The notes: generated from the sequence alone by a model not told the origin. Positions 23,082 to 42,836 are shown, numbered from the stretch's first letter. The stretch: 64,000 bases of DNA from Acidobacteriota bacterium (GCA_028875725.1 JAPPCR010000006.1:563786-627785); one strand, 5' to 3'. Numbers and translations: made by a program.

Positions 23082-23861
23082 ATGAAGACGATGTTGACGG
23101 TTGTCGCCGCAATGCTGTTGGTGATGGGAACGGTCGCCTGCGTCGAGATCCGGGTAGGCGCCCCGGATGACGCCGAGACCGAAGAGGCCGCGGTCGAACC
23201 GGCCGCGACCCTGAACGAGCTCAGTGCCGAGGAAGTCGAGGCAGGCTTCCAGTCGCTCTTCGACGGCGAGTCGCTGGAGCACTGGCGCGGCTTCAAGCTG
23301 GACCAGGTGCCGGCGGGCTGGTCGGCAGCCGACGGCGTGGTCCACTTCCTGCCGCCTACCGGCGACGACGCCGGACCGCGAGCCGACCTGCTGACCCGGG
23401 AGCAGTACCGGTCATTCGAGTTCCGCTTCGACTGGGCCGTAACGGCGGGAGGCAACAGCGGCGTCATGTTCCACGTCTCCGAGGACGCCCCGGCCTCCTA
23501 CTCGACCGGCCCGGAGTTTCAGATTCTGGATGATGACGGCCACCGGGACGGTCAGCGCATGGAGACTTCCGCGGCCTCTAACTACGCCCTTCACGCTCGG
23601 CAGGGCGGTGAGCTGGTACCGGTGGGCGAGTTCAACACTTCCGCCCTGCGGGTGGAAGGAAACCGGGTCACGCACTGGTTGAACGGCGAGAAGGTGGTCG
23701 AGTACATGCTCTGGGACGACGACTGGAAGGCGCTGGTTGAGGCCAGCAAGTTCGCTTCGATGCCCGGCTACGGGATGATGGAGACGGGCCACATCGCGCT
23801 CCAGGACCACGGCAACGAGATCTGGTTCCGCAACCTCCGCATCCTCGTGCTGCCTGATTGA
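23082..23861 (+). CDS. DUF1080 (3-keto-disaccharide hydrolase-like, LamG-fold) lipoprotein
   Basis: Lipobox MLLVMGTVAC. Motifs FDGESLEHWRG...GNSGVMFHV...GHIALQDHGNEIWFRNLRI are typical of DUF1080. Confidence 0.55.
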   Translation: MKTMLTVVAAMLLVMGTVACVEIRVGAPDDAETEEAAVEPAATLNELSAEEVEAGFQSLFDGESLEHWRGFKLDQVPAGWSAADGVVHFLPPTGDDAGPRADLLTREQYRSFEFRFDWAVTAGGNSGVMFHVSEDAPASYSTGPEFQILDDDGHRDGQRMETSAASNYALHARQGGELVPVGEFNTSALRVEGNRVTHWLNGEKVVEYMLWDDDWKALVEASKFASMPGYGMMETGHIALQDHGNEIWFRNLRILVLPD

Positions 23862-25869: not shown

Positions 25870-26583
25870 ATGCCGAGTGCTCGCAAAGGCCAGGTGAGCC
25901 AAAGCAGCCGGATGGCGATTCCCACACATGGCCCATCGTGCCGGACTTGGACTTATCCGACGGCTTGCTGGGAATGCGGAAAAGCCATCCAAATCCTGCA
26001 GTGCACCTGTGGCAGCGTCGTGCTGTTGGAGGCCATGGGCTGGCCATGGCCACGGCACGACTGCCGTTCCCATAGTTCCGCATCCGGGGGTGTCGGCGGT
26101 AGCGGTCTGAGCGGCTGGACGGCAGTTAACAAACTGCGGCGCCTGGGGATCCCCATCACCGATGCTGCCATGGAGAAGATCTTCCCGGAAGAGAGATCAG
26201 GACCGCAAGTTACTCGTCCAGTTGAGGACACGAAGAAGGTCGACCCCTCGGGCCATGGGACGAAGGACCTTCTGGCCGTCTTGCGGGAGTTGCAAGAGAG
26301 GACACGTCGCACGGCGCTCATAGAGAGCCTCCCGGTGATGGGGAAGAAGCTGCTTGGCCTTGAAGCTCACGTCCGCTACTGGCAGGTGACGCTGGTTCGA
26401 AACGACGTGCAGCCGAATGAGAGCTACACAGCTTTCATTCCAGCGCCACTCGTGCGGACTCTACGGAGGGGCGTGATGGTCGCAGCGAAGATCGTGGCCC
26501 GTGGGCACGGCGAACAGGCGTGCTGGCTCGTCTCGGCCATCCGGGGTTGTGTGATCCCGGTGAAGTCTAGGAGCGATCCGTGA
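25870..26583 (+). CDS. hypothetical Cys-rich (zinc-ribbon-like) protein at the edge of the defence island
   Basis: Begins 40 bp after the Rieske-TPP stop, where GC drops. CxxC...CxC cluster (CRTWTYPTACWECGKAIQILQCTCG). Converges on and overlaps the brxA 3' end by 17 bp. Confidence 0.35.
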   Translation: MPSARKGQVSQSSRMAIPTHGPSCRTWTYPTACWECGKAIQILQCTCGSVVLLEAMGWPWPRHDCRSHSSASGGVGGSGLSGWTAVNKLRRLGIPITDAAMEKIFPEERSGPQVTRPVEDTKKVDPSGHGTKDLLAVLRELQERTRRTALIESLPVMGKKLLGLEAHVRYWQVTLVRNDVQPNESYTAFIPAPLVRTLRRGVMVAAKIVARGHGEQACWLVSAIRGCVIPVKSRSDP

Positions 26584-27322
26584 GAGCGACCAAGGCTTCT
26601 TGATCCAGTCCGTGATGCGTGACTTCAAGCGTGGTGCAGGCTTCAAGCTCTCTCGTGGACGGAAGGGACACATCGAACGGGAACATGTGGGGACCGTGTA
26701 GCAGTGCCCTGGCTTGCTGCGGTCGATCTCCCGTGGCTGCAAGCACCGCCTGGATGGCCCAGGCGGCGAGTTGATCCCGGTTCCCTACGACGCGCTTCGA
26801 TGTCGCGCTGTAGACGCCCTTTGAACCGCTTTCCTGAAGGACATCCCAGTCGATGAATGTCCGCAGAATCCGCCTCGTGGCGCGGGCCACCGTTTCGCGT
26901 TCACCGAACTGCTCACGGACGCGGCGCTGCACTTGGGCGGCACCAGCCGTTCCCTGTAGGCGCAAGAGCCGACCGGTCTGGTGTGCGACTTGCCAGAAGA
27001 ACGGGTAGGCCGCCATGCACATGCACCAGTGGACGAAAGTGCGTTCCGCTGCCGACGGACGTTGAAGCAAGTGGATCCCCTGGTCTCTCAGCCCCACGCG
27101 GTTTCTTGGGACGTTGGCCCACACCTTTGTCAGGATCGTGATCGCCTTGTGCCGGTTACCGCGCTTCGGTTCGTTGCCGACGGACAGCTTCTCCCGCAGG
27201 CGTTCGTTGAGTTCCGAAGCGATCTCGGCCGTCGTGTTGTCCGCGAGAACGAGGTTTGCCGTGTACTCCAGCCAGTCGAGCTGAATGCGCTGGCTGAAAC
27301 CGATCTGACCGGCTCGGTTCAT
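26567..27322 (-). CDS. brxA: BREX protein BrxA (DUF1819-like)
   Basis: 251 aa. Last gene of the minus-strand operon. 4 bp overlap with pglZ. Size and position fit BrxA of BREX type 3. Family assignment rests on context plus weak sequence recollection. Confidence 0.45.
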   Translation of the reverse strand: MNRAGQIGFSQRIQLDWLEYTANLVLADNTTAEIASELNERLREKLSVGNEPKRGNRHKAITILTKVWANVPRNRVGLRDQGIHLLQRPSAAERTFVHWCMCMAAYPFFWQVAHQTGRLLRLQGTAGAAQVQRRVREQFGERETVARATRRILRTFIDWDVLQESGSKGVYSATSKRVVGNRDQLAAWAIQAVLAATGDRPQQARALLHGPHMFPFDVSLPSTRELEACTTLEVTHHGLDQEALVALTDRS

Positions 27323-29367
27323 TCTGCTTTTCGCCTGATCTCGATCAAGGGGACGACGAGCTCTTCAAGAGAGACGCCGCCGTGCCCGACGATCCGGTCG
27401 CCTTTGTGCGCAAAGGCGGATCTGCCAGGCGCCAAGAGAGCGTGACAGTCGGTTGGAAGACCGGGCCCCGGCCACGCGACGGCGTCTGGGAACTGCTCAA
27501 GCACGCGGTTTCGCAGAGTCGTATCTGAGTAGACGCGCGCACGCTTCCCCCGCGTGCTGACAAGCGCTCCCTCAGAGGGCCGGCCGTAGCCTCGCGCCTC
27601 GACGTTGCCATGGTCCGACGTCAGAAACACGGCGAAACCAGCCTCGAGGAGCGACTCCACGATGGCCACGGGCTGGCCTTCCTCGGCCCACTGCCGGACC
27701 TGGTTGTGCATGCCGGCGACGCCCAGTTCCATGCCGTGCATGATGTCGTCTACCTTGTTGAGGACGACGCCGAGTACTCGCAGTCCACGCACGGAAGCGC
27801 GATCCCGCAACTCGTCGACGCTGTCGCAGGTGCCGCCCTTCAGATACTCGACTTCGTGCTCGCTCAGGCCATGTTCGGCCCAGAACCCATGCCACAGCGA
27901 AGGTTCCTTCTCGGTCGTGTGGATGCTCGACTCGAAGTAGAACGGCGGTGTGCCGGCAAAGATGGACTGGCGTGACACCGACGTGATGGTAGGCGCCCAG
28001 GCGAAGAGTGCATCTGACCGGAAACCGAGTGTTGGGCGTTGGTCACCAAGAACGTCGCGGAGCACGAGCCATTGGTCCAACGCCAGGCCGTCGACCACGA
28101 CCAGGGCGATCCTCCGTTCGGTCGCGTCTTCGAGCCGCCGGGCGAGATAGCGTGGCAGGTGATGGACCATCACCGGAGGGTCGGGCGGTAGGTTGTGCAG
28201 CCCAGCGTAGCGGCTCTCGACCCAGCCGCGAAATGCCTCATCCACCCGGCGACGGAGGCTGGTCAGGCGACCGCTCAACTGCTGGCGAGCCGGGGCTAGG
28301 GTGGACCACCACAGGACGCCCAGTTCCGCCCACAGCCAAGCGAACGACAGCCATTCCGGGTGTCTTACACCGGACTGAGGCACGACGCGATCGACGTGCC
28401 CCAGCAGCTTCTCAAGCCGGCGCAAGCGATCTACTTCGAGGTCGCTGCGGATTCCAACGGAGACCCAATCGCCGTGCCGGCCCAGTTCCGGCGCGTGGGG
28501 AACAGGGACGAGTTTCCCTTCAAGGAACAGGTTGTCGATGTACACCCGGACATCGGCGTGATCGAACGGCAGGTGGAGTGGTCCGTTCAGGATCAGCGGA
28601 CGCTCCGCCTTGATCTGCCCATCTTCACCCGCGCTGCCGTCTAGGAAGACAGGCCAGCGCTCTTGCAAGAAGGCGAAGAAGGCCTCTCGCTCCGGGACGA
28701 TGGTCTCAAGTGGCCACGACGCGAACGCTTCGTTCCGTCGGAGCACCGCGACTAGTCGTTCATCCAGTGGCCGCGGCAGCCGGATCTCGCGGTAGTGCCG
28801 CCGCAACAGAATCTGCAGGAGGTCGGCCGGGCTCTTGATCTCAGTAGCCCGAACGCCGAAGACGTGCTGGAGTACAAAGTCCTTCGTAGCCTTCTCGCCA
28901 AGTGCCTTAGGCCTGCGTTCCCTTTGTGCGTCATCAACCGCGTTCAGGTCGGCTGTGTCCAGTGTTGCGAGTACCGCACAACTGAGTTCGGGGAACAGCT
29001 CGGAGAGGCCGAAGCGCAAGGGTCTTCCAACCTGCAAGAGATCGTAGGGGATGGAGGCGAGATCGTCGTGGTCGAAACGTAGGAGTAGTTCCGCGTTCGC
29101 GCCTTCGGCATTGCCCGAGACGCGGGGGTGGCGGGATCGCATCTCGTGGGCAAGGCGGAACGCCACCGGATCCTCGAAAGTGAAGAACTGAAAGCCCCTG
29201 CGCCGGACCTCTTCGAGCACCTCTTCGTCGAGCAACAAGTCGTCCGGGTCGGCGGCCAGCGTTACCGACGCGACTCCCGGCGCTAGGTCCTCCAGGATCC
29301 TCTCACGCCAACTAGCCATCGGGACCACCGTTTCCTCGTGCAGCCGCGAGGTCACGGAACGTGCCAA
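27319..29367 (-). CDS. pglZ: BREX alkaline-phosphatase-superfamily protein PglZ
   Basis: 682 aa. C-terminal PglZ-type motifs (FLTSDHGNVEARG...GHGGVSLEELVVP). Confidence 0.7.
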   Translation of the reverse strand: MARSVTSRLHEETVVPMASWRERILEDLAPGVASVTLAADPDDLLLDEEVLEEVRRRGFQFFTFEDPVAFRLAHEMRSRHPRVSGNAEGANAELLLRFDHDDLASIPYDLLQVGRPLRFGLSELFPELSCAVLATLDTADLNAVDDAQRERRPKALGEKATKDFVLQHVFGVRATEIKSPADLLQILLRRHYREIRLPRPLDERLVAVLRRNEAFASWPLETIVPEREAFFAFLQERWPVFLDGSAGEDGQIKAERPLILNGPLHLPFDHADVRVYIDNLFLEGKLVPVPHAPELGRHGDWVSVGIRSDLEVDRLRRLEKLLGHVDRVVPQSGVRHPEWLSFAWLWAELGVLWWSTLAPARQQLSGRLTSLRRRVDEAFRGWVESRYAGLHNLPPDPPVMVHHLPRYLARRLEDATERRIALVVVDGLALDQWLVLRDVLGDQRPTLGFRSDALFAWAPTITSVSRQSIFAGTPPFYFESSIHTTEKEPSLWHGFWAEHGLSEHEVEYLKGGTCDSVDELRDRASVRGLRVLGVVLNKVDDIMHGMELGVAGMHNQVRQWAEEGQPVAIVESLLEAGFAVFLTSDHGNVEARGYGRPSEGALVSTRGKRARVYSDTTLRNRVLEQFPDAVAWPGPGLPTDCHALLAPGRSAFAHKGDRIVGHGGVSLEELVVPLIEIRRKAE

Positions 29368-29381
29368 GCGTCCTTGAAGCC

Positions 29382-31565
29382 TCAGAACGGGATGTCGTCA
29401 TCGGCTGGCTGCGTAGCTGCCGGCTGTTTCTCCGGCGCCTTCCGAGCGGTGCTACTCCCTTCCGTCATCCGTCTTGTGCCGGCCCACTCTTCGGCGATTG
29501 GCTTCCAATCGACGTCTCTTTGATCGCGTCCTGTCCACACTCCCCAGAACGCTGGGTCGGCCGAATCTGGGCGCTGGGTCTCGTGCAGTTCGTCAACCTC
29601 GACCAGTACTGGCGCCGATGCCGCCCAGCCAAGCAGAATCGCACGACGCGTCGGAAGGCTAGGGAGTTCCCGAAGCAATGTGCTCATTCCGTCGGGGACC
29701 ATTCGGCGCACCAAGTCTTGGTCCTGCCTGTTCACGATCCGGTGCAGCAGGAAAGTGCTGCACTGGGACAAAACTGTGGGAGACAGTTCGGATGGGCGCT
29801 GCGAACAAAGCACAAGCCCAAGACCGAGTTTCCTGCCTTCTCTGGCGATTCGGTCGAACACGCGCCCACAGGCGCGCTCGGCGCCGGTGGCCTCTTGGCC
29901 AGCCATAGCCCGATGCACGAATCTGTGAGCCTCCTCGAGGACGAGGACTGTTGGCAGGTCCCGTCGGTGATGGTGTCTGTATCTCTGATGGGCCTCAAAC
30001 GTGAGGCGAGCGAGAACTGCTACGACTATCTGGACGACATCGGATGGCACTAGAGAAAGGTCGATGATCGAGAGCTGGCCGTTGGCCCCGTCGTCTCCTA
30101 CTACATCGGCCAACCAATCGGAGAGTGCAATCTCCTCTCCGTCTGGTGGAAGTGCGATTGACGCCAGACGTCGTCGCCTTGTGAGGTCTCGAATACGGAG
30201 GTTCAGTGTGTCCACGAACTGGGCTATGTCTCGGCCTTGTGACTGCGCCGCCAATCCGTCGACGTAGTCAGGTAGCCTCTCAACTGGAAAGGGGCGCGGT
30301 TGGTCGTGGTCCCAAGCGGCTTTGTCGGTCGGTGGCTCAACCAAGTCGAGCACGTCGGCCAAGCGTTCCTCCACGTCTGCGATTCTGTTTGGCGCTAGGC
30401 TGCGGTGCCATTGCTTCCCCTTGGAGGGCAGCCCTTCACGCGCCTCCTGTTCGAGACGTGTCGCGGCTACTTGTACGGACTTCAGCGGTTCCCCCAGAGG
30501 CGAATGGCAACTCGTGGCTTCTCGGGAGAGTGCGCCGAATTCGTCTGCTGTGCTGGAGAGAAGATCTGCGACGTCCTCTTTTCCGCCTCCCTTTTCGTTC
30601 GGGCCTACCGCGACTGCGAGACGGAAGTCGCGCTCGTAGCGCCGTGCCACCCTGGCGACTCTTCTCGCCAAGGAGTTGGGAGGCTCAGCACCGGCTCGCA
30701 AGTGTCGGAGGGCTTTGAACAGCGTCGGGCGCTGGACACCAGGTGCCGCGGTCGTGAACGCGGCCCACTCTTCACCGTTCCAGAGCCAGGCAGGGACCTT
30801 GAGCTGTTGCGCTGCGTTGGTTGCTTTCTCAACCTGGAAGAGCCTCACGTCCAGGTCTGAGAAGGCGTGAGCGTACTCTCCGTGTGGGTCGAGGAGGATG
30901 AAGCGGGCGTTGGGAGGGCCTGCCCTTTCGTGTTGCTCCCGCGCGTTCGTCGCTTCGTTGATCGACTGTCGCAGCAGGCCGGCCACGGTACAGGACTTGC
31001 CGGAGCCCGTGTTTCCAAGCACTGCTAGGTGGCGTCCGAACAAACGGTCGGGGTCTACGTGCACGGGCGCATTGCCGGCGAGAGGTGCTTGGCCCAGAAG
31101 GACACGGCCCCGTGTCGCCGAGCGGTCGCCTTCAACGATTGCCTGAAGCTGTTCCCGGGTGGGCAAGAGGACTTGATCGCCGAGAACCGGGGCCGCGTCG
31201 ACACCACGGCGAAAGACGAGCGCGCAGCGGCCGTCCTGAAGTGTGCTTACGAGCGTTCCCAAGGGTACGAGTGATGCGATGCGTCGGGGAAAGGGAAGAT
31301 CCACGAATCCATGCGCTCGCGACTCGCCGGCCGGTGGGAATGGCGCAGGGCGGGCACGCACCGACGTGATCCAACCGACCGTTGAACCCACCTCGCTCGG
31401 AATCGTCAGGTAGGTGCTAATGCGAGGAAACGCAGTCGGCCGGCCGTTCGTGATCGCGGTCGCCAGCGGCGCCTCGGAGCTGATTGCTACCTCGATCTGG
31501 TTCGCCGACACCTCGTCGACGGTGCCAATTGCTCGGTCGCTTGGGTGTGAGCCGGAAGTCGTCAC
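29382..31565 (-). CDS. herA: HerA-like (FtsK/HerA superfamily, DUF87) ATPase of a SIR2-HerA defence module
   Basis: Walker A LAVLGNTGSGKSCTVAGLL. Walker B/LEEAH box VLVLEEAHRF. HerA signature GLGLVLCSQRPSEL. 4 bp overlap with the upstream SIR2 gene. Confidence 0.75.
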   Translation of the reverse strand: MTTSGSHPSDRAIGTVDEVSANQIEVAISSEAPLATAITNGRPTAFPRISTYLTIPSEVGSTVGWITSVRARPAPFPPAGESRAHGFVDLPFPRRIASLVPLGTLVSTLQDGRCALVFRRGVDAAPVLGDQVLLPTREQLQAIVEGDRSATRGRVLLGQAPLAGNAPVHVDPDRLFGRHLAVLGNTGSGKSCTVAGLLRQSINEATNAREQHERAGPPNARFILLDPHGEYAHAFSDLDVRLFQVEKATNAAQQLKVPAWLWNGEEWAAFTTAAPGVQRPTLFKALRHLRAGAEPPNSLARRVARVARRYERDFRLAVAVGPNEKGGGKEDVADLLSSTADEFGALSREATSCHSPLGEPLKSVQVAATRLEQEAREGLPSKGKQWHRSLAPNRIADVEERLADVLDLVEPPTDKAAWDHDQPRPFPVERLPDYVDGLAAQSQGRDIAQFVDTLNLRIRDLTRRRRLASIALPPDGEEIALSDWLADVVGDDGANGQLSIIDLSLVPSDVVQIVVAVLARLTFEAHQRYRHHHRRDLPTVLVLEEAHRFVHRAMAGQEATGAERACGRVFDRIAREGRKLGLGLVLCSQRPSELSPTVLSQCSTFLLHRIVNRQDQDLVRRMVPDGMSTLLRELPSLPTRRAILLGWAASAPVLVEVDELHETQRPDSADPAFWGVWTGRDQRDVDWKPIAEEWAGTRRMTEGSSTARKAPEKQPAATQPADDDIPF

Positions 31566-32908
31566 ACGTTTGCTACCTTGCCGTCGGGCTCCTCGTTCTG
31601 CCCGCCTCCTCCGACATGCGGGTCTGGTCGTGTACGCTTCAGGATTTCGGTCATGGTTCCGAGGTTGAAGTCGATGTAGGGCTTCGGCAAGTAGTGCTCG
31701 ACCAGCTCGAACAGGCTGCCAAAGTGCTCGCCGACCAGGATTGTGATCTGCTGCTCGCGCATGCTGGCCTTCACGAATCGCTCGGCCCGCCTGCCGGTGT
31801 CCTCGTAGGACAGGATCACGAGATGTGTCGACGGGATCGTGAGCATATCCCGGATCACCCGGTTCACGTGATCGTCACCGAAGCCGTAGCCGTAGGTGAC
31901 CAACACGGTGTCGGGTCGGCAGACCGCGGCTGCGAAGTCACGAAACAGGTCTGCGTAGGGATACTCCAACGTCTCCGTGTCCTTAGCGGCATTCGGGTAG
32001 ATCATCAAGCTGTTGGTTGCCCGTGAAGATACTTCGGAGTCAGTAGGTTCCGCGCCGAACGGAAGAGTGTGTTGGACGATCTCGGGGCCTCCTAGGTGAG
32101 TCTTGCGACTGTGCCAGTCGAGCGAGCCATGCAGCTTCGTGAGCCTCACGACGCCGTCGAGGTAGCGGGGCTCGCCGCGCAGCCCAGGGGGGTTGTAGTG
32201 CAGGTCGACAGCAGGGCGGGACGAGCGGAAGACTGGAGACAACCGTCCAACGAATCGATCGAGAACTCGGAGTCCCAGGAACTCGCAGCCGTACTCGATC
32301 AGTCTGTCGTAGTTCGTTGTAAAGATGTGCAGCCTTTCGCGAGAACCAGGGCGGTTACTGAAGGTCTGGAAGAAAGAGGATAGTAACCGTAGACCTTCTA
32401 CGTGGCCGTCCGCGAAGGCGTCCCGGATCTGACGCTCCGAGAGGAGTAGTGCATGCCAAAAGTCCTGCAGTGCGGTTTCGTACTCCCGCTCCCATGTGCG
32501 GAGCTGGGCCGAGGCGTCCTTGTCCCCGTGGAGTCCAAGAATGCGGAGCCCACTGACGAGCTCTGCAACGGCACGCATCTGGTCTTCAAAATTCGGTTTA
32601 CCGCGTGCCGAACGCTCGGCGGCATCTTCAGCGGCTTGCTGAATCGCACCCGCCATCTCGTGTCGAAACTCAACCATCCCCATATCCAGTGCTGCGACGT
32701 CCACTGCTGCGCCGACGGCCGTGGTCAGGCCACTACCTACGAGGAGGTTGACATGCTCGCCTTGGATCAGAGCAGAGAGCCAAGGCCGGATGTGGAGCTT
32801 CTGTTCTTCCGGATCAGGTGCCTCGTTCTTTGACCAGACATGGGTCCCGGCTCGAGCGTAGTGGGTGGGCCAGGCTGGAAGGCATGTGGCGTCGGCACTG
32901 CCGGTCAT
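31562..32908 (-). CDS. SIR2-family (SIR2_2) NAD+-binding/NADase effector of a SIR2-HerA defence module
   Basis: Motifs VNLLVGSGLT, IFTTNYDRLIE and KLHGSLDW are the hallmark SIR2_2 motifs shared with ThsA/DSR/SIR2-HerA defence proteins. 4 bp overlaps on both sides (pglXI upstream, herA downstream). Confidence 0.75.
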   Translation of the reverse strand: MTGSADATCLPAWPTHYARAGTHVWSKNEAPDPEEQKLHIRPWLSALIQGEHVNLLVGSGLTTAVGAAVDVAALDMGMVEFRHEMAGAIQQAAEDAAERSARGKPNFEDQMRAVAELVSGLRILGLHGDKDASAQLRTWEREYETALQDFWHALLLSERQIRDAFADGHVEGLRLLSSFFQTFSNRPGSRERLHIFTTNYDRLIEYGCEFLGLRVLDRFVGRLSPVFRSSRPAVDLHYNPPGLRGEPRYLDGVVRLTKLHGSLDWHSRKTHLGGPEIVQHTLPFGAEPTDSEVSSRATNSLMIYPNAAKDTETLEYPYADLFRDFAAAVCRPDTVLVTYGYGFGDDHVNRVIRDMLTIPSTHLVILSYEDTGRRAERFVKASMREQQITILVGEHFGSLFELVEHYLPKPYIDFNLGTMTEILKRTRPDPHVGGGGQNEEPDGKVANV

Positions 32909-35892
32909 GAGGCGGTCCGGGTCACGGCCTGGTCATACCAGAGTAGGAGCTTTTGGTCCTCCTGCAGGACTGTCGGAGGAAGTCTGTCAGCGACTCGGAT
33001 GATGGTGTCGTAGTCACCGTCTTGGTACGCGCGGAAGAAGCCAGCGCGGACGGCCTCAAGGCGGAAGAGCTTCAGGCGGCGCTGGGGTGCAGCGACGTAC
33101 TCCTTGAACTCGCGGAGGAGGAGACCGTTGCGGCGCTTCTCTACGTCAGCAGCTTTCTTCGGGTCGGGTACGTACCAGCGACCGGCGCCCTTCGCTTTCA
33201 GAGCAGGGTGGTCTTTAGGGAGTTTGCGAAGGTCCTTGTAGTTCGTCGAGAGATAGGAGTGGATCTGGCTGGGGACATCACCCGAGCCGCCGTAGAGGAG
33301 GAAGTTCTGGTCTAGCATGTCAGATAGTTCGGGTAGCTTCTCGTGCTTCAGTTGACTCCGCAGTTCGCGCAGGAAGGCTGGGTGGAGATCCTGAAAACTC
33401 TGAGGTTTGTGGAGCAGTTGCTGTCTCAGCCATTGGATCGTCGTCGCCTCGTCGCGGACGAAGATCTCCAACTGGGCCACCTCGCTGGCTGCCATTCTCT
33501 TCCGGTCGTACTCCGTGACCTGGTCGGGAAGGAAGACCATGCCGTCGCGTTCGGGGTAGCGCTGGCTGACGCCGACCAGGAACTCGCCCACGGACAGGGG
33601 CACGGCGACCTCGCGAAGGACATGGAAGGCGACCATGCGGTCGAAGAGGATATGAGGCTGCCGCTCGTGGACAATCTCGGTCCGGCCGTCCTTGGCCACG
33701 AAAACTGGAAGTTGCTTCAAGTGTGTGCGTAGGAAGTCCCAGGCGGCGTCCTCAGTGCCTTTGGTCAGCTCGAAGCGCCCTTCCAGGCCGTCGTTTGGCT
33801 TGTAGGCTGAGATGATGAGGTCCTGTTTGACGGCTGTGCTCGTTACCTGTTTGAACGATCCCTGGCTCTTGTCCATAGTCCGCACGTCGGCGACGACAAA
33901 ACCTGCCGCGAGCAGCCCTTCCTGAATCGCCGTCCAGACCGCGTTGCTGGAGTTATGGAAGACTACAGTAATCCAGCGACCTGGCTTGAGGACACGTCTG
34001 TACTCCTCGAACGCTCGTTGCATCAGGCGCTGGTACGTGGGTAGGCCCTTAGCTCTGACGCGATCGACAATTGCCTCTGGCGCCGCATTTGTCAGCACAC
34101 CGTGCCAGGATTCGATTAGGAAGTTCAGGTCAGCGTAGTAGATGTTCTCGCCGAAAGGGGGGTCGGTGAAGATGTAGTCTACGGAACCGTCGGGGACGCT
34201 AAGGGCCGCCGCCGTTCCCGCCGTCACGATACATGGGGCTCGTCCTTTGTCGTTGGCAGAAAACGCCTTGGCAAGCCGGGACAGCTTGTTGCCGAGGTTG
34301 TATCTGGGTGACACTTCTGCGATCTGGGAGCCTACGTAGTACACGCCGGACAACTGCCGATTGACTTGCGAACCGCCGAGCCGGCCGTGTTGGACCGGCT
34401 GGTAGCGATTGAGAAGGGACATCCCCCAGACGGCCTGCTCGACGAAGTAGAGCAGCATGTGTCGGACTCGTGGGTCCGAGTAGGAGCTGGCACGTCGCCA
34501 AAGAGCGGTCAAAGCGTGTGCGGCCCTTGGGAGGTAGAGGTGGTGTATGGCGGTTGTCTTCGTTGTTGCCATCCGCCCGACCCGAGTCATCTGGCATTCG
34601 GGAAGCGAATTGACTGGGAAGGCAGCCGGCAGCGGCATGGATGCGATCCGCTCGAGCAGGGCGGTGTCCGCTGATGTCGGGGTCTTTTCGTACCGTTCTC
34701 CGCCCACTCGATAGTGAATCAGGGCAGGTACACGTTTCGGACGTTGTCGCACCTCCCCGGTCGCAGGATCGACGTAGTTGTCCAGGCGGAGTTCCATGTT
34801 CTCCTTGCGGGCGACGGCACTGCACTGGGGACAGGCGATGGTCGGGTCGGTACGGCCTGTGGTCCTGTCTAGAGCTTCCAGCACGAAGACGAGTTCGGCG
34901 CCGCAGTTCAAGCAGCCGAAGACCTCGCTCCAGACCGTGTAGCTGATTCGCCCCTTCGTCCGCTCGTCCGTGTGCAGTGTCTCGTACATCCAGCCCAGTT
35001 CCGCATCGACCTCGTCGAGCAGTTTGCGACCAGCCTCGGCGAATTCGTCCACCTCGATGGGCAGCGTGTAGTTCGCCGCGATGAAGCCTGCGAGCGGGGA
35101 TAGGTCGTTCAGGATGGCCCGGCGAGCGCCCCATTTTGGCTTCCCCAGGCCCTGCTCCGCCCACGTCGCTTCGAGACGCTGGCGGTAGCTCTTCGGTGCC
35201 GACTCGCACCATTGAGCCGCGACGCCGGTCATCCCGGAGCCGGAGAAGCCGTCGAGAACGAGATCGCCTGGTTCGGTGTAGTGGAGCAGGGAAGGGAGGA
35301 TCGCTAGATGGGGCACCTTCGTGTGGTAGCCATGCGCTCGGTAGACGGCGTGTGTCTTCCCTTCCTTGACGTCGACGGCGAAGGGTGTGCGGCGGTATGG
35401 CTCGTCAGGGTCGTAGGGCTTACCGTACGTTGCTACGAACTCGTCCAGAAAGGGATTCGGGCAGGCGGTGTGCAAGGGCGGGTCGGACAGATTCAGGATG
35501 TCCTCGATTTCGCCTTCGGGGAAGCCGACCTCGTCCTTCCAGCGCTGGAGCAGGCCCTTGGTGCGATCCGCCGAGCGCATCCGTTCGACGAGCGTGCGGA
35601 GTTGCGCTTGGCTGCCCATGGGCCAATGCCGAATGGCCGAGAGCCGAGCCACGGCGTGCTCGGCACCGTCCCAGGGAACACCGTCGAGCCGAGTGTGGAG
35701 TTCCTCCAGCCCCTTTCTCAGCCTGCCCAGAAAGTGCTCCCGGCGTTCGTCGTCGCTCTCGAAGGTCAGCCCCAGGCATTCGACCGGGCCGTCGTTGGAG
35801 CCGTTCGTTGAGGAGGCCTTGTACAGCTTGTCTTGTGTGGGCGGCTCGGCGCGGCCACCGCGCACAGCGCCCGTCCACATGTCATTGGGCAT
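32905..35892 (-). CDS. pglXI: BREX type 3 adenine-specific DNA methyltransferase PglXI (DUF1156 N-terminus plus N6_N4 beta-class MTase)
   Basis: 995 aa. SAM-binding motif LVLDGFSGSGMTGVAA. Catalytic DPPF motif DYIFTDPPFGENIYYADLN. Confidence 0.65.
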   Translation of the reverse strand: MPNDMWTGAVRGGRAEPPTQDKLYKASSTNGSNDGPVECLGLTFESDDERREHFLGRLRKGLEELHTRLDGVPWDGAEHAVARLSAIRHWPMGSQAQLRTLVERMRSADRTKGLLQRWKDEVGFPEGEIEDILNLSDPPLHTACPNPFLDEFVATYGKPYDPDEPYRRTPFAVDVKEGKTHAVYRAHGYHTKVPHLAILPSLLHYTEPGDLVLDGFSGSGMTGVAAQWCESAPKSYRQRLEATWAEQGLGKPKWGARRAILNDLSPLAGFIAANYTLPIEVDEFAEAGRKLLDEVDAELGWMYETLHTDERTKGRISYTVWSEVFGCLNCGAELVFVLEALDRTTGRTDPTIACPQCSAVARKENMELRLDNYVDPATGEVRQRPKRVPALIHYRVGGERYEKTPTSADTALLERIASMPLPAAFPVNSLPECQMTRVGRMATTKTTAIHHLYLPRAAHALTALWRRASSYSDPRVRHMLLYFVEQAVWGMSLLNRYQPVQHGRLGGSQVNRQLSGVYYVGSQIAEVSPRYNLGNKLSRLAKAFSANDKGRAPCIVTAGTAAALSVPDGSVDYIFTDPPFGENIYYADLNFLIESWHGVLTNAAPEAIVDRVRAKGLPTYQRLMQRAFEEYRRVLKPGRWITVVFHNSSNAVWTAIQEGLLAAGFVVADVRTMDKSQGSFKQVTSTAVKQDLIISAYKPNDGLEGRFELTKGTEDAAWDFLRTHLKQLPVFVAKDGRTEIVHERQPHILFDRMVAFHVLREVAVPLSVGEFLVGVSQRYPERDGMVFLPDQVTEYDRKRMAASEVAQLEIFVRDEATTIQWLRQQLLHKPQSFQDLHPAFLRELRSQLKHEKLPELSDMLDQNFLLYGGSGDVPSQIHSYLSTNYKDLRKLPKDHPALKAKGAGRWYVPDPKKAADVEKRRNGLLLREFKEYVAAPQRRLKLFRLEAVRAGFFRAYQDGDYDTIIRVADRLPPTVLQEDQKLLLWYDQAVTRTAS

Positions 35893-37771
35893 CGGGGCGC
35901 TCTCCTTGGGTCGTTGCTGCGCTCTTGGCAGAGGCGCTCAGACGACGGGCCTTGATCGCGATGCCAGCCGGAGTGAGCACATAGGCTTGACGCGGATGGT
36001 GAGGCTGATCCGGATGAGTCATCTGGAGAACCCCCGTGTGCAGCAGGGGGTCCAGATGCTGCGCCTTGAAGTAGCCCCGGTTCTTCATTCTCACTGCCGA
36101 CATCAGCTCGGCCAGACGGCGGGGCGTATCGCAGAGCCGGATGATCCGATCCTGAACGGCCGTTAGCTCCGCCAAACCTGGACCTTGTGCAGTGGACAAG
36201 TTCGCCGTTGGCTGGCCGGGTTGTGCAGTGGACAAGTCTCCGGGCGGTGGTGCGGAGGGAGCGTCCGAGGACCGGAAAGCTCCGGCACGACCTAGTTCGC
36301 CAAGCTGCTCCTCAAGGTGAGCGGCCGGGACGAACAAGGGAGCCTCGGAGCCTTCAAGCGGCGAGATCAGCGCCTGAGCCGTCAGCCTGTTGAGGACGGC
36401 CATGACGTCGCCACCGGAGAGACCCGTCACGGCCCGAACATCGCCAAGTCGCAGACGTCCTTCGCGGCAGGCGAACGCGAACGCCCTGGATTCCGGGTCG
36501 CTCAAGCGAACCCCCAAGCTCGCTTGAAGGAGGAGTTGCCGTTCAGAGACGAGCTCCTCCTTGAGGAGAGTGATCTCGAAGGTCTTCTCGACCCTGTCGC
36601 TGGCGATGACAGGCGGCACGTGACCGAGCTGCCGCTGGTGGCCGAAGATGGCGCGAAGCCCTGAACCTGCCTGCTCACTCAGACCGATGCGACGGAAGGC
36701 CGTGACTATCCTCGGGTTGCGGACTGCCGTCCCTTGCGGTTCCAGGAGGGCCTCCGCCGAGACGAAAGCGTCTCCGGGGTTCCACAGCGACGTGCGGTCG
36801 TCATACGAGTGGATCTCCGCCTTGCGCGAGTGGTCGGCATAGTCCTGATGTATCAGCAGGTTGATCGCCGCCTCGCGGAACGCCGCGTAGTCCGGGGGAC
36901 GATCGGCTCGTTGCAGCGTCTCCGGGTGGAGAGCGAAGGGGACCTCTGCGCGTTGCAGATAGCGATTGTGAAGTACCTTCCACGCTTCTATGAGGTTCGA
37001 CTCGATGACGAGTCGGTCCGTCCATCGCTGGTCGTCGAAGCCGTCGGGCCAGTCACCGCGGTGCCACTGCCAGTCGACAACCGGTCGCGGCAGGAGTTGG
37101 TGGAAGGCCGACGGGCTACCGAACAACAGGACCGCCGCACGGGTTGGTAGGAGGCGGTCGCCCTTCTCGACTATGAGGCCCCATTCAAGAAGGAAGTCCG
37201 TGTCTGACCATTCCGGGTCATGGCTCAGGTTCCGATCTTCAAGGAGACGTCGGTACCAGCGGACGGACGAGGCGTCGAAGCACCGTTCGGGGTCGAGGTC
37301 CACCGCGACGCTGTCATAGGTGACGTCTGCGGCGTCGCGGAGCAACCGTTCGATCTCGGCTGGTGTACACCTTTCGTCGGCCGCCCCGCGGCGGAGAAAC
37401 GAGAGCTTGATGTCTCCATTCAGATAGACAGGTTTGTCCTGTCTCTGGGCTTCTGGAATGTAGAAGACGATCAGCGCCTTGCCTTCATCCTCTAGGAGCT
37501 GACCTTCGGCTTCGATGGCTCGGTTGAACTTCTGACCGGAGCGCAGAACTGTGAGGAAGTCGTTCTGCACTCTGTCGACTTCGATGACACCGACGACCTC
37601 AAGGTCGCCGTCTTTGTCGCGGACGCCGAACACGAGCCGGCCGCCTTGCGTGTTCGCAAACGCGGAGACGGTTGTGTAGGCCTCTCCTGGAACGCCACGT
37701 TGGGCGGCCTTGAACTCCAGATCTTCCCACTCGTAGCCCTTGATACGCCGGATGAGTTCTTCCCTGTTCAT
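35882..37771 (-). CDS. AlbA_2 (Schlafen-like) plus HATPase_c_4 divergent-AAA protein with C-terminal wHTH, inserted in the BREX operon
   Basis: N-terminus EDLEFKAAQRGVPGEAYTTVSAFANTQGGRLVFGV is the AlbA_2 signature. Family often mis-annotated as RecG-like. Sits between brxC and pglXI with a 6 bp gap and 11 bp overlap. Confidence 0.55.
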   Translation of the reverse strand: MNREELIRRIKGYEWEDLEFKAAQRGVPGEAYTTVSAFANTQGGRLVFGVRDKDGDLEVVGVIEVDRVQNDFLTVLRSGQKFNRAIEAEGQLLEDEGKALIVFYIPEAQRQDKPVYLNGDIKLSFLRRGAADERCTPAEIERLLRDAADVTYDSVAVDLDPERCFDASSVRWYRRLLEDRNLSHDPEWSDTDFLLEWGLIVEKGDRLLPTRAAVLLFGSPSAFHQLLPRPVVDWQWHRGDWPDGFDDQRWTDRLVIESNLIEAWKVLHNRYLQRAEVPFALHPETLQRADRPPDYAAFREAAINLLIHQDYADHSRKAEIHSYDDRTSLWNPGDAFVSAEALLEPQGTAVRNPRIVTAFRRIGLSEQAGSGLRAIFGHQRQLGHVPPVIASDRVEKTFEITLLKEELVSERQLLLQASLGVRLSDPESRAFAFACREGRLRLGDVRAVTGLSGGDVMAVLNRLTAQALISPLEGSEAPLFVPAAHLEEQLGELGRAGAFRSSDAPSAPPPGDLSTAQPGQPTANLSTAQGPGLAELTAVQDRIIRLCDTPRRLAELMSAVRMKNRGYFKAQHLDPLLHTGVLQMTHPDQPHHPRQAYVLTPAGIAIKARRLSASAKSAATTQGERPDAQ

Positions 37772-37777
37772 GAGAAG

Positions 37778-40700
37778 CTACTCGAGCACGATCCGGACCC
37801 TCGCCGGATCCTCTCCCTTGGTGAGACTGTCCACGTACTTCGCGAACCGCTGCTTCATCTCAGTGGGAGCTGCGGGCGACCCGCCGTCGAGCAGGGCAGT
37901 GCGGACCTCCCCGATGTTTGCCTCTACTTTGACAAGCCCCGATAGGACGGCGCGGACTCCGTCGATGAGCTCAGATGTCAGCGACTCGGGTAGCTCTCCG
38001 GACCGTAGGAAAGCCTCGACGGGCGTGCGGCGCTCAGGATCGAGCAGGGCGATGTTCTCGCTAGTCGAGGGATCGTCCAGGTTCGCGAGCAGTGTCTCGG
38101 ACCACGCCTTCAGTATCCCGTCGAGGCGGTCGTCAATGCTCGCCAAAGCCGTGGCTACGCCTGGAGAGGAGTCCTCCATTGAAGGCCTGAACTCGCAGTG
38201 GGAGCAGGTCGGCCTTGCATCGAGGTCTTCCTTGGTCAGCGCGAAACAGGTCGTTAGCCGCTCAAGTCCCTTTCGCAGGTCCTCCAATTGCCGAGTCGGT
38301 AGCAAGTCGATGGCCGAGAGGGTGTCGAGTCGCGCGAATCGTACGTCCCGAAGCAGGGCCGTCTTCCGGCGATCGTCGTTGACACCGAGCCGAGCCTTGG
38401 TGTGGAGGGTGAGGTACCGTTCAATGTAGTCCCGCTTGAGATCGTCGAGTGCGCTTAGCACTCGCCGGCGGACCGTAGCGGTGTCCTGGGGCGAGCGGTT
38501 CGCCAGTTCCGCGAGGACCGCTTTCCTTGTCGTCTGCAGCTGACGCGTCCATTCTTCGGAGGATGGGCCCGAGTTGGAGAGTGCGGCCTCGGCCGCGGCG
38601 AAGTAGGTCTCCGCGGGCGCAAGTTCCACTGCCAGACGTTGGGCGCTCTCGGCCTCGTCAAGAGCACGGATCGCCGCCTTGTGGCTCCTGACGTCACGGG
38701 CGTCCGGCCTGAAGTTCTTGAGCTTTCCGGGTGTGTTGAAGGCCTGGACCGTCTCCAGGAAGTTCTTGGTCCGTGCCAGGTTGAACACCGGATGCGCGGT
38801 CTCTTCCTCGCGGACGAGCGTTTGCCCCCAGAACTGAAGGCCGCCCCGAACCGCGTCTTCGGCGCGGACCAGACGGTCGATCATCTGCTGGACGCCGACT
38901 TGAAGTTCGCGAACCGGCGCCTCCTTGCCTTGGGTGACGAGCGCGGCGACGCCCGGGCTCTGGCCTAGCAGCTCGAACAGGGCGCGGAGGCCCGGGACGT
39001 TCCATTCCTTAGGTGGCTCGACATGCTTGAAGCGGGCCAGTTCATCGACCGAGATGGCGGCGATGGTCGAGAGGTCCGAGGCATCGAACTTCCTGCCTGA
39101 CACTAGGAGGACGAGGGCCCCAGCGTGCACCAGCGCCGCAAGCAGCACGACCACCCACTCGGGCTCCAAGCGGAGGGTTTGCGGGGCCATGTACTCGACG
39201 CCGAGTAACTCCTGGATCAACTCTGATCGGTTGACGACCTGGCCCTGGCCCTTTCGGCCCAAGGCATCCAGAATGTGTCGTGCGTACCGCGAGTTGTCGG
39301 GGTCCAGGCGTTCACCGTCGAGAAGCTCGAGCGCATCCAGCACGGCGGCAGCCTGCCTGGTCCTGGATGCTCCGGCTATGCGCCGTAACGCGTCCTGTGC
39401 TGCCTGCGGACGGCTCTCCGCGGTGATCAGCACCGAGAAGCTGGGATACTCCGGTGCCCGGTCTGCGAAGTGGGCCTCCAGACAGATGCCGGCAACTGCG
39501 TTCATCAGGTCGCGCAGGTTGATCCGTGAGGGAGTCGTCGCCGCGGAGAGCCCCGGAACAGCTTGACCTTCTGTCCATGCGAGCAGCGGCTTGCGCCGAC
39601 CCCGATGGACCACTTCAAAGGCCGAGTCCATGTGCTCTTGAAGCCAGACGACCAGGCTGCGAAGAAAGCCGGAGGCCTTCGACTCGTAGGTAGCTTTCGC
39701 GTGGCCGGAGGAGGTCGAGGCAAGTTCGGCCGCAGCCGCGTAGCTGCGCAGGATGTTCCGAAACTCGTCGTCCGCGCCCGTCAGATGGACCAAGACCTCG
39801 TCCTGTGCCCTCTCGTCCTTGAAAGAGGGGGGCTCGTTGGGCTGAAGGAAGTAGATGTAGAAGTCTCGCGGCGGTACGGCCGTGGATCGTTCGTTCGGAG
39901 CGCCGAAGAACAGGTAACCCTGACGTGCCGCCTTGCGGCTGCGCCATTCGAGATCGTGCTCCCAGATGCGGTAGCCCGTGACATAGGTTTCGTCCGTGCA
40001 CTCCATCGCCTGGCGAAGCGCCTGGTAGTAGTACCGGTCGAGCCGTGCCGGGTCGAGGCTCTCCGCCCGCCGCTCGATCAGGGCGTCGAAATCGTCCGTC
40101 TTCTTCAGGTCGAGGTAGTACTGGCCGTTCTCCGGGTTGGACGAGATGAACTGGCCGCTGACCGTCCGGTGGATCTCCCGGAGGACGGTCGCTACTTGAG
40201 AAACCAGGTCGTCGGTGGGGTCGCCCCCGAGGTCTTCGATGCCCTCCTGGTAGAGGCAGAGGCTGTCCCGCAGTTCAGCCGGTGTGGCGCCGAGAGGAGT
40301 GTCCAGACCTCCGGTGGTCAGTCGGTGGACCGAGAGCGCATGGATGATGCGAAGCGCCATCGGCTTGTAGTTCGGTCTGCCAAACGCCTGCTCCACTCGG
40401 GACTCGAGTACCTGACTGCAGTCGATGACAGCCTTGATGTCGGGAATGGTGCGGAAGGACGGGTTGCCTCGCAGCGTGGACCAGTAGTCGTCGTAGGCGA
40501 TCAGGCCCGGGTGTTCCGAGGGCAGTTCGCACGCCAGAAGTCCCTTGATCGACAGTGAGAGGGTCTTCAGCACCTCCCGCTTCTCGGCTGCGGTTACGCG
40601 CTCGAACGTATCCACATAGTCGGGGTGAACAGGAAACAGGTCGACAAACTCGTCCAGCCGTTCGTTCATCCGTTCGTAGAAGCGGGTGAAGGGCGAGAGG

Positions 40701-41518
40701 TACTCGCGGATGCGGGCGTGTTGCTCGCCTGACTTCCGCAGCAGGCGCTGCGCGACGACGTACTTCACGTCCTGTCGGGCGATGTGGACCTGTTCGAAAC
40801 GGTCGCGAACGCGCCGGACGCTTTCGCCGATGAAGGCGAAGCGGTGGTGGTCGAAGACAGCCTCTTGAACGCCGGCCACAAACCGGAATCGGAGGTCCTT
40901 GCAGACTTCGCCAACCTCGCGCAGGAAGTTCAGGTCGAGGATGATCTGCTGATCGTCGCGGCTGCGGAGATAGTCCAGCAGTTCGTCGACCACCAACAAC
41001 AGACCGTGATCGGGATGCTCTGCAAGGAAGGCCGTGAGCATCTCCTCGAAGGCCCGTTTGCTGCTCGAGACCTCGGCGACGCTCGGGAAGGAGTACGCGA
41101 CCCCGAGGGCGCGGAGACCTTCCTCGAGGGTGTCGACCACGATGTCGCGCAGAGGCATCGTCGTGGCCCCGATCTCCGTTCGAACGACCTTGAACTTGCC
41201 GGCTATTGCGACGGCCTGCTCGGAGACACCGGAGTGGGTGAGGACCTTCGCCAGGTCCTCATGCTCGGCAACACCGGAGATGACGGACATAAGGTGTGAC
41301 TTGCCGGTGCCGTAGTTGCCGACGATGAGGATGCCCTTGTTGTCGGCCGGCGTGTCGTACTGAAGCTGCGGAAAGACCACGGACGTGAGCTTCTCGGCCA
41401 TCTCGTCGGAGATCACATAGGTGCTCACGAGGCGGCGGGCCGCTTCGGTTTCGTCCGCGTCGCGAAGCTGAACGACGGTCTCGATCGGGTCGAACTGGAC
41501 GAGGTCTTCGTACTTCAT
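37778..41518 (-). CDS. brxC: BREX ATPase BrxC/PglY (DUF499 P-loop NTPase)
   Basis: About 1247 aa from the internal ATG (MKYEDL...), which overlaps the brxF stop as ATGA. P-loop [18 protein letters not shown] near the N-terminus. Size typical of BrxC. Confidence 0.7.
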
Positions 41519-41997
41519 CCTGCGGCGGGTTCGACGTTGACGATCTGAACGTCGTCGATCGGGTAGTGGCGATACTCGGGATGGCCGGGTTCGGCGTAAC
41601 GGAGGTGGTTGCCGTGAGTAGCTCCGCTCCAGGCAGCGACCACGGTCCACTGGCGCGAGAGGTCCTTCAGGAGGCGGAACGGGTTCTGACGGAGTGCGGT
41701 GTCGAACAGCAACTCCAGCCTGTCGAGCAGAACGACTTTGCTGTCCAGTTCGGCGAGTACTGCTTCAAGGAGCCGCCGGACTTGGCGGGGACGCTGAGAC
41801 GAGGTCAAGTGGAGGAGACGGCGAGAGAGTTCCAAGTTCACGTTGACGAGAGGAGCGCCCGCCGCTTCTGCGACTTCCTCCAACACTGCGGCCTTGCCTC
41901 GGCCGTTGGAACCGACGAGAAGGACGAGGCGCTCGCTTCGTTGCTCGGCGTGGTGGATCGCCACTGTCACTTTCCGGGCGAGATCGGTGGTCATCAA
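41515..41997 (-). CDS. brxF: BREX type 3 small P-loop ATPase BrxF
   Basis: 160 aa. Walker [15 protein letters not shown]. First gene of the operon, immediately upstream of brxC with ATGA overlap. Confidence 0.55.
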
Positions 41998-42092
41998 GCG
42001 CTGCCGGTTATCGGGTCTTGGGGGCGACGACGATCATCGCGGGACTCTACACGCCGATACGCTTGGTTGGCTGCGGTAGCCTGACGTCGATG

Positions 42093-42836
42093 ACGATCGG
42101 CGGCCGTGAAGAGCTGGAGGCCCTGCGCCGGGCGGGTCGGGTAGCGGCCCGATGTCTGGCGCGTATGGGCGAGGCGCTCGAGCCGGGCATGACGACCGCC
42201 GAACTCGATCTGATCGGTCGGGAGTACATGGAAGCGCGCGGCGCGCGTTCGGCGCCCGAGTTCTGCTACGACTTCCCGGCCGCGACCTGCATCAGCGTCA
42301 ATGAGGAAGTCGCGCACGGCATCGCGGGCGACCGGCGGATCGAGGCGGGCGATCTGGTCCACGTTGACGTGTCGCTCGAACTCGACGGCTACTTCAGCGA
42401 TACGGGCGCGGCGTACCCGGTGCCGCCGGTGAACGAGGTGCGGCGGCGGATGATCTCGGCCACCCGGCGGGCGCTGCGGGAGGCAATGCGGCAGGCGCGC
42501 CACGGTCGCCGCCTGCGCCACATCGGCCGCGCGATCGAGGAGACGGCGACCAGGGCTGGTTTCGGCCTGATCCGCAACCTGGGCTCGCACGGCATCGGCC
42601 GCTCGCTCCACGAGGAGCCGAAGTTCGTGCCTGGCTTCGACGACCCGAACGACGACCGCTTCCTGCATGACGGCATGGTGCTGACGATCGAGCCATTTCT
42701 TACCAACGGCCGCGAGCAGGCGAAGACCGCGAAGGACGGCTGGACGCTGCTCAACAGGCCCGGAACGACGACGGTCCAGTTCGAGCACACGATCATCGTC
42801 ACCCGCAAGAAACCGCTAGTGATGACCTTGCCGTAG
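42093..42836 (+). CDS. map: methionine aminopeptidase, type I
   Basis: Conserved MetAP-I blocks (CISVNEEVAHGI, HVDVS, GHGIGRSLHEEP, EPF). Start set at internal Met MTIGGREELEAL; the ORF extends to 42018. Confidence 0.7.
   Translation, partial: TIGGREELEALRRAGRVAARCLARMGEALEPGMTTAELDLIGREYMEARGARSAPEFCYDFPAATCISVNEEVAHGIAGDRRIEAGDLVHVDVSLELDGYFSDTGAAYPVPPVNEVRRRMISATRRALREAMRQARHGRRLRHIGRAIEETATRAGFGLIRNLGSHGIGRSLHEEPKFVPGFDDPNDDRFLHDGMVLTIEPFLTNGREQAKTAKDGWTLLNRPGTTTVQFEHTIIVTRKKPLVMTLP

Follow-up and report, generated by a model that had tools for sequence, protein, structure and literature searches.

The 64,000-nucleotide (nt) stretch of DNA analysed here, referred to as the window, comes from an Acidobacteriota bacterium (GCA_028875725.1 JAPPCR010000006.1:563786-627785) and carries, at 26567-41997, a type 3 BREX defence operon with a SIR2-HerA gene pair inside it. 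Eight tightly packed genes on the minus strand encode BrxF, BrxC, a Schlafen-type protein, PglXI, SIR2, HerA, PglZ and BrxA, in that order (Table 1). A preliminary description of the locus had listed eight such genes. The gene calls, taken from the list of open reading frames (ORFs), and the family assignments, made by Pfam and PADLOC profile searches with strong hidden Markov model (HMM) matches, confirm both their number and their positions. Two junctions recur throughout: slot a, between brxC and pglXI, and slot b, directly after pglXI.

Table 1 Positions of the operon genes, a variable segment of pglXI and the bordering genes in the window.
Feature	Position	Strand	Description	Profile matches
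brxF	41515..41997	-	First gene of the operon; inactive-STAND/AAA BrxB homologue	PADLOC PDLC02496, 2.8e-50, full length
brxC	37778..41518	-	DUF6079 ATPase, 1246 amino acids (aa)	Pfam DUF6079, 1668 bits; PADLOC PDLC02482, 1828 bits
Schlafen-type gene	35882..37771	-	Slot a; 629 aa; AlbA_2, HATPase_c_4 and winged helix-turn-helix (wHTH) domains	
pglXI	32905..35892	-	Type 3 BREX N6-adenine methyltransferase, 995 aa	PADLOC PDLC02541, 1266 bits; Pfam N6_N4_Mtase
Hypervariable segment in pglXI	34552..34852	-	About residues 347-447; no blastn alignment with locus L161; invariant columns sparse	
SIR2	31562..32908	-	Slot b; NADase-family gene, 448 aa	PADLOC PDLC04079, 520 bits; Pfam SIR2_2, 9e-10
herA	29382..31565	-	ATPase, 727 aa; partner of SIR2	PADLOC PDLC04098, 788 bits; Pfam DUF87, 6.7e-23
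pglZ	27319..29367	-	Alkaline-phosphatase-fold BREX core protein	PADLOC PDLC02558, 850 bits; Pfam PglZ, 6.4e-25
brxA	26567..27322	-	Last gene of the operon; type 3 BrxA homologue	PADLOC PDLC02444, 1.2e-77
Peptidase_M24 gene	42018..42836	+	Housekeeping; divergent from brxF; upstream edge of the island; same flank in L161	Pfam, 3.1e-44
Rieske and thiamine pyrophosphate (TPP) enzyme gene	23858..25831	+	Housekeeping; downstream side of the island; 90% aa identity to the L161 flank	Pfam

A SIR2-HerA pair within a type 3 BREX operon

The SIR2-HerA pair between pglXI and pglZ of this type 3 BREX gene set is complete and intact. The preliminary description had assigned the 448-aa protein to SIR2 and the 727-aa protein to HerA, and both assignments hold: each protein matches the generic PADLOC model of its family end to end. 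The motifs that it quoted are present and align with those of solved SIR2-HerA structures. In SIR2, TTNYD and KLHGS (the latter within KLHGSLDW) align with PDB entry 8j4u, and residues N199, D201 and H260 are invariant in 24 homologues; in HerA, the Walker A motif GNTGSGKS (residues 178-185, its lysine being K184), the Walker B motif LEEAH and the SQRPSE motif of the arginine-finger region align with 8xau. The SIR2 protein of the window is also recorded, identically, from an Acidobacteriota metagenome-assembled genome.

SIR2-HerA is reportedly the anti-phage system of Gao et al. 2020 and Garb et al. 2022, with the solved structures 8j4u/8su9, 8wld and 8yhx. The window holds, like that system, a two-gene pair with overlapping codons and with the catalytic, Walker A, Walker B and SQRPSE motifs kept. 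It differs in its setting, a BREX operon in which the pair lacks a separate intergenic region, and its proteins are only remotely similar to those of solved structures: SIR2 matches 8j4u with a phmmer E-value of 7.7e-24, and HerA matches 8xau, 8ziq and 8wiv at 1e-43 to 1e-46, at best about 1e-46.

The junctions tie the pair to its neighbours. Stop and start codons overlap by 4 nt (ATGA or GTGA) at brxF/brxC, pglXI/SIR2, SIR2/herA and pglZ/brxA, the start inside the overlap being ATG for brxC, SIR2 and brxA and GTG for herA. The Schlafen-type gene overlaps pglXI by 11 nt, a gap of 6 nt separates brxC from the Schlafen-type gene, and one of 14 nt separates herA from pglZ (62 nt if PglZ starts at Met17). 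There is no room for an intergenic promoter in the 4-nt overlaps ahead of SIR2 and of herA. The overlapping stop and start codons suggest that transcription begins upstream of brxF and probably yields a single message for all eight genes; the preliminary description had likewise proposed a single transcription unit, which the gene packing makes very likely. Three starts deserve comment. That of brxF is probably the ATG at 41994, judging from the N-terminus. That of brxC is at 41518 and not at the longest-ORF start, 41650, as the profile match begins at residue 45 of the longest ORF. PglZ begins at a TTG (29367) or, more likely, at Met17 (29319): the PADLOC match begins at residue 17, and the orthologue in a related locus, L161, is called there.

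The order of type 3 BREX genes, reportedly established by Goldfarb et al. 2015, is brxF-brxC-pglXI-brxHII-pglZ-brxA. The markers of this type are present in the window by Pfam and PADLOC: a DUF6079-type BrxC, PglZ, PglXI (not PglX), BrxF and a type 3 BrxA. The ORFs of these five core genes match their HMMs over the full length, share one strand and follow the canonical order. The PADLOC match of PglXI spans residues 20-993, and its DPPF motif (residues 577-580) is invariant at all four positions, D577-P578-P579-F580, in an alignment of PglXI homologues. By blastn, the operon aligns with the orthologous locus L161 everywhere except in the hypervariable segment listed in Table 1. A nested target-recognition domain has been described for BrxXI (PMC12839542), and the segment is probably such a domain, in which case the BREX systems of the window and of L161 would recognise different DNA motifs.

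What the operon lacks, in comparison with the canonical set, is the SNF2-type helicase BrxHII. A tblastn search of the whole 64 kb window with the BrxHII protein of another type 3 locus (L003; PADLOC PDLC02500, 1460 bits) finds no homologue, the best E-value being 0.9. No SNF2, DEAD or Helicase_C Pfam domain is found in the eight operon proteins. The published survey of BREX counts BrxHII among the core components of type 3, and it reports the gene from only 77% of type 3 taxa; the other 23%, like the window, lack it (PMC12839542). The second departure from the canonical type is the presence of two nested cassettes, one in each slot.

The cassette in slot a was called an AlbA_2 ATPase in the preliminary description. 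The AlbA_2 domain stands, and the protein as a whole is of Schlafen type, with Pfam matches to SLFN_AlbA_2 (2.6e-14), HATPase_c_4 (4.3e-12) and, at the C-terminus, the Fic-like_C wHTH (6.8e-11). Proteins of this make-up (AlbA_2, minimal histidine kinase, wHTH), known as Schlafen-kinase-wHTH, are linked to BREX in 1017 taxa and have been proposed to act as an RNase-type backup (PMC12839542). The window protein has the same domains, lies inside the BREX core locus and shows no notable difference from them.

A HerA-family ATPase in one operon with a DUF6079 BrxC-like ATPase, PglZ and a BrxA-like protein recalls BREX-Related Capture (BRC), which consists of HerA/FtsK, DUF6079, PglZ, DUF4007 and STAND, with or without GNAT/TGT (PMC12839542). 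The HerA of BRC is DndH-like and is accompanied by neither SIR2 nor PglXI, both of which the window has. We rejected membership in BRC: the window HerA is of the wrong subfamily, scoring 788 bits on the PADLOC SIR2-HerA model and 22.8 bits on DndH; the operon includes PglXI; and its proteins have no Pfam match to GNAT or TGT.

The eight genes form an island with a G+C content of 0.62-0.64, against 0.68-0.70 in the flanks. Scans with tRNA and Rfam models returned no integration landmarks and no regulatory RNAs.

Inheritance and probable exchange among the closest relatives

The nearest homologue of the window SIR2 (P0002, 67% identity) lies in L161, a locus with the same chromosomal flanks, the identical order of eight genes and, again, no BrxHII. 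The proteins of the two operons are 67-79% identical by tblastn, and the flanking TPP enzymes 90%. Across all eight genes the ratio of non-synonymous to synonymous substitution rates (dN/dS) is 0.15-0.27 at a dS of 0.70-1.07; dS in the flanking genes is 0.61. The shared order and these ratios show that the eight-gene composite was inherited intact, under purifying selection, since the two genomes split. On the flank, a TonB-dependent receptor, a 3-keto-disaccharide hydrolase and the Rieske-TPP enzyme are syntenic between the window (21048-25831) and L161 (16517-21285); the receptor is 71% identical and its neighbours 88-90%.

A neighbour-joining tree of PglXI, without bootstrap, groups the window with L161, L081 and L082, none of the four having BrxHII. 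In L082, pglZ follows pglXI with nothing in between. Closest to the window among the BREX relatives is L081 (BrxC 90% identical), which carries after pglXI a Ppl-like PHP-ATPase gene and a different, shorter Schlafen gene encoding 418 aa (9480-13442). Since these nearest BREX relatives, one with an empty slot and one with other cargo, also lack BrxHII, the loss of the helicase is independent of SIR2-HerA.

L081 is a recombination mosaic. Nucleotide identity to the window is 86-88% from brxF to the 5' part of pglXI and 76-77% in the 3' part of pglXI and in pglZ-brxA, and the stretch in which the cargo differs runs exactly from the pglXI stop to the pglZ start. This is the pattern that would be expected from cassette exchange by homologous recombination between conserved BREX genes. 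The slot-a Schlafen gene of L081 is cut down to its C-terminal third (5833-6357).

Cargo in the slots on either side of pglXI

Two sets of loci place the window operon in context. One is anchored on SIR2 and comprises 80 genome loci around relatives of the window SIR2 (44-55% identity), onto which the window proteins were mapped; the other is anchored on PglXI and comprises 80 metagenome loci, in which the gene after pglXI could be resolved in 70 and slot a in 63.

The SIR2-anchored set contains four type 3 BREX loci in which SIR2-HerA comes immediately after pglXI: L003 and L005 (Vicinamibacterales), L012 (Gemmatimonadetes) and L019 (Gammaproteobacteria). In L019, herA leads straight to pglZ, as in the window. 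L003, L005 and L012, which hold the same SIR2-HerA lineage, have the order pglXI-SIR2-herA-brxHII-pglZ with a full-length BrxHII. Because these three keep BrxHII after HerA, the pair is an insertion at the junction of pglXI and brxHII and not a stand-in for the helicase. The proposal in the preliminary description that SIR2-HerA occupies, or replaces, the BrxHII slot is therefore not supported.

Slot b proves to be widely used. Among the 70 resolved PglXI-anchored loci, pglXI is followed directly by brxHII in 34, by cargo and then brxHII in 26, by pglZ directly in 4 and by cargo and then pglZ in 6, so that 32 loci carry cargo. At least eight defence cassettes other than SIR2-HerA are found there: a Ppl-like ATPase with a short Schlafen (L081, L141), NsnAB (L087), HEC-01 (L103), NsnB/HEC-03B-like pairs (L100, L111, L135), a Tmt-like helicase (L144), PDC-S68 (L097), a PDC-M28-like protein with a Schlafen (L124), IetAS (L153) and, by tblastn similarity to the window protein, a Schlafen alone (L094, L098, L140, L146, L151). 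A distant SIR2-HerA occupies the slot in L119 and probably also in L109. The slot serves as a hotspot for cargo in general.

Slot a is no less varied: 42 of its 63 resolved loci carry cargo, which is Schlafen-like in 17, SIR2-HerA in 3 (L110, L113, L131) and of other kinds in 22, while 21 are empty. A Schlafen gene lies in slot a in the window and in slot b in other loci. In L005, slot a holds, where the window has its Schlafen, a 393-aa DUF4062-domain protein with no PADLOC match (5869-7050); its position makes it a possible uncharacterised defence candidate.

The SIR2-HerA copies in BREX operons are of more than one origin. In a tree of concatenated SIR2 and HerA (neighbour-joining, midpoint-rooted, no bootstrap), the slot-b copies fall in one clade, interleaved with pairs outside BREX (L002, L004, L008, L001, L060 and others), and the slot-a copies of L110, L113 and L131 form a distant clade. 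The pairs of L109 and L119, left out of this tree, are a third, distant type with 33-36% identity by tblastn. At least three SIR2-HerA lineages have thus entered type 3 BREX, at two different junctions.

Loss of BrxHII is similarly scattered. It is missing in 10 of the 70 resolved loci, with no cargo in L082, L105, L117 and L157 and with cargo other than that of the window in L081, L086, L087, L103, L135 and L144, and such loci, with intact core genes, occupy at least eight places on the neighbour-joining PglXI tree. In L100, residues 22-101 of BrxHII (its N-terminal Tudor-like part) are all that remains, directly upstream of pglZ and after the NsnB/HEC-03B-like cassette (6386-6625); this looks like a deletion remnant, a trace of helicase loss.

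Outside BREX, we screened the 65 SIR2-anchored loci of at least 12 kb for BREX genes and for matches to eight restriction-modification (RM)-like query proteins, drawn from methylases, helicases and restriction enzymes, within 10 kb. There was no BREX gene and no match in 50 of them, a result that covers these eight queries only, so that the 50 may have other defence neighbours. The 15 with matches are the 4 type 3 BREX loci and 11 others. In nine of the 11, PADLOC identifies the co-oriented neighbours: an HmaB methylase (L014); an HmaB-like methylase with an SNF2 helicase of the BrxHII/HmaA type (L072); a DrmD helicase (L056); a DpdE-like helicase with a DrmMI-like methylase (L047); type III restriction enzymes (L018, L058); a type IIG RM enzyme with an HKD-SNF2 helicase (L001, L060); and a PLD-helicase (L048). 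For L025 and L061, the RM-like neighbours are assigned by tblastn similarity only. In L011 a DruE-type helicase lies upstream, one short ORF away, and the sole hit of this locus in the screen was a weak DrmMI-like match elsewhere in it. In the neighbour-bearing loci SIR2 lies at about position 10001, and most pairs are directly downstream of, and co-oriented with, the genes of the other system. From these arrangements, SIR2-HerA has the look of an autonomous module, one frequently nested in systems based on methylases or helicases.

Some cargo in these operons has no family match. ORFs in the type 3 BREX operons of L135 (7246-8295) and L086 (6617-7051) have no Pfam or PADLOC match, and one in L100 (5322-6371) has no PADLOC match in a PADLOC scan only. 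The cargo stretch of L086 (6617-7476) holds a second ORF at 7048-7476. The 349-aa proteins of L135 and L100 come after an NsnB/HEC-03B-like ATPase in both loci and may be the partner of that ATPase.

A probable embedded second line of defence

Known embedded defence genes include BrxU in the BREX system of pEFER, PrrC in EcoprrI, and the HEC and PDC candidates. Defence genes embedded in BREX, DISARM, type I RM and Hma systems are co-oriented with their hosts in 96.7% of cases, and PrrC and BrxU have been discussed as precedents (bioRxiv 10.1101/2024.01.29.577857). The SIR2-HerA cassette of the window resembles the embedded systems of Payne et al. in being nested, on the same strand and joined by overlapping codons, and in occupying a slot that is filled by other cassettes or left empty in 80 related loci. 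The accessible parts of the 2026 BREX survey (PMC12839542) and of the embedded-defence preprint, supplements included, make no mention of SIR2/sirtuin or of a BREX-nested HerA gene, nor does SIR2-HerA appear as type 3 BREX cargo in the corresponding parts of the preprint's text and supplements. Literature searches on BREX with SIR2-HerA, on type 3 BREX with HerA and on BrxHII returned no description of the window architecture. As the preliminary description had supposed, no paper was found with this exact arrangement. The architecture recurs, is conserved and had not been described explicitly, and it is an instance of the known nesting of defence systems rather than a new kind of system.

On balance we favour, with some confidence, the reading that SIR2-HerA is a co-transcribed but mechanistically independent second line of defence that depletes NAD+, embedded in a cargo hotspot of BREX. 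The island would then be a horizontally acquired type 3 BREX operon without BrxHII, with two embedded defence cassettes (Schlafen in slot a, SIR2-HerA in slot b), and its eight genes would be expressed as a single transcript starting upstream of brxF. BrxF, BrxC, PglXI, PglZ and BrxA would form the primary system, in which PglXI would methylate host DNA and unmethylated phage DNA would be excluded. To our knowledge there is no experimental work on type 3 BREX, and its helicase has no known role, so that these functions are assigned to the core by family membership. HerA is known to induce the allosteric activation of the SIR2 NADase (PMC11514289), and a HerA hexamer assembled with SIR2 would here switch on NAD+ hydrolysis allosterically, arresting infected cells. 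The pair would thereby constitute a second, abortive layer that shares the promoter of BREX and not its mechanism, and the Schlafen protein may be a further, RNase-type backup. The cassette would have been gained, and would be exchangeable, by recombination with the conserved BREX genes serving as flanking homology.

Several points weigh against this reading. The independence of the BREX and SIR2-HerA mechanisms is deduced from modularity, and the activity of a BREX core that here lacks BrxHII is presumed from family membership. The repeated entry of SIR2-HerA into type 3 BREX, in both slots, together with its recurrence beside methylase and helicase systems, may be due to functional synergy rather than just to a site that permits insertion. 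The trees are neighbour-joining trees without bootstrap, made from translations of tblastn high-scoring segment pairs. Finally, a scan for promoters and terminators gave 0 promoter-like sites and 9 terminator-like ones against 10.8 expected, and such a scan is uninformative for an Acidobacteriota genome.

The preliminary description went further and proposed SIR2-HerA wired into BREX as a new subtype. In a true hybrid of this sort, the HerA ring translocase would take over the motor role of the lost BrxHII, and the SIR2 effector would be triggered when BREX senses unmethylated DNA. The absence of BrxHII from the window, the exact placement of a translationally coupled pair between pglXI and pglZ, the recurrence of the BrxHII-less architecture in the orthologous L161 and, independently, in the gammaproteobacterial L019, and the purifying selection on all genes agree with such a merger. 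BrxHII is indeed lacking in 2 of the 5 independent slot-b SIR2-HerA lineages, against the background of 10 in 70, but this association is not significant (Fisher p = 0.18), and the other three lineages keep BrxHII beside the pair. The PglXI clade of the window loses BrxHII in L082 with no cargo and in L081 with other cargo, many unrelated cassettes share slot b, and most SIR2-HerA relatives lie outside BREX. The embedded SIR2 and HerA also have the same length and architecture as their relatives outside BREX, and are matched by generic HMMs end to end. We therefore rejected SIR2-HerA as a specific replacement of BrxHII and regard the hybrid as highly improbable; a new subtype is unsupported. 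Still less credible is a decaying BREX, inactivated by the loss of a helicase regarded as core (PMC12839542) and surviving as a promoter-bearing relic while Schlafen and SIR2-HerA alone still defend. Genes in such operons do erode, as the truncated Schlafen of L081 and the BrxHII fragment of L100 attest. The five core ORFs of the window are nevertheless full length, and their dN/dS against L161 is similar to that of SIR2-HerA and near that of the flanking genes, values on which a relic is rejected. BrxHII-less loci with an intact core, moreover, recur across the PglXI tree, and BrxHII is lacking in 23% of type 3 taxa in the published survey (PMC12839542).

By analogy with PrrC in EcoprrI, an autonomous SIR2-HerA could instead act as a guard that is silenced by the methylation system, or monitors it, and fires on a phage anti-BREX or anti-restriction factor. 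Its repeated capture by type 3 BREX, in both slots and by at least three lineages, would suit such a role, as would the roughly one quarter of SIR2-HerA relatives that are co-oriented with and adjoin Hma, DISARM-like, type III or type IIG RM genes, and PrrC and BrxU are precedents. No known trigger of SIR2-HerA involves RM or BREX proteins, however; 50 of the 65 long SIR2-anchored loci have none of the BREX or RM-like neighbours tested for, and clustering in defence islands with shared regulation explains the co-location equally well. We consider a guard unlikely. A broader version, in which SIR2-HerA is a habitual partner of methylation- or helicase-based immunity rather than a random passenger, may guard it by depleting NAD+ once it is inhibited or overwhelmed, and might supply the missing DNA motor in helicase-less operons, seems decidedly unlikely; if true, it would mean a functional coupling between epigenetic and abortive defence systems.

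With the embedded second line of defence as the favoured reading, the locus alone leaves current concepts unchanged. Its value lies in the natural series to which it belongs: one BREX core that comes with or without BrxHII, and with SIR2-HerA, other cassettes or nothing in the slot. This series shows that the helicase is dispensable over evolutionary time and that defence cassettes are exchanged at both junctions flanking pglXI. It is well suited to testing whether embedded abortive modules act independently, in synergy or as guards, and the slots flanking pglXI could be mined for new defence genes.

Elsewhere in the window, positions 1-4000 form a second stretch of low G+C content (0.59-0.61 against about 0.68), which has no connection with the BREX island. 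Overlapping it are a TonB-dependent-receptor-like ORF (15-2825) and small ORFs for which Pfam gives no match.

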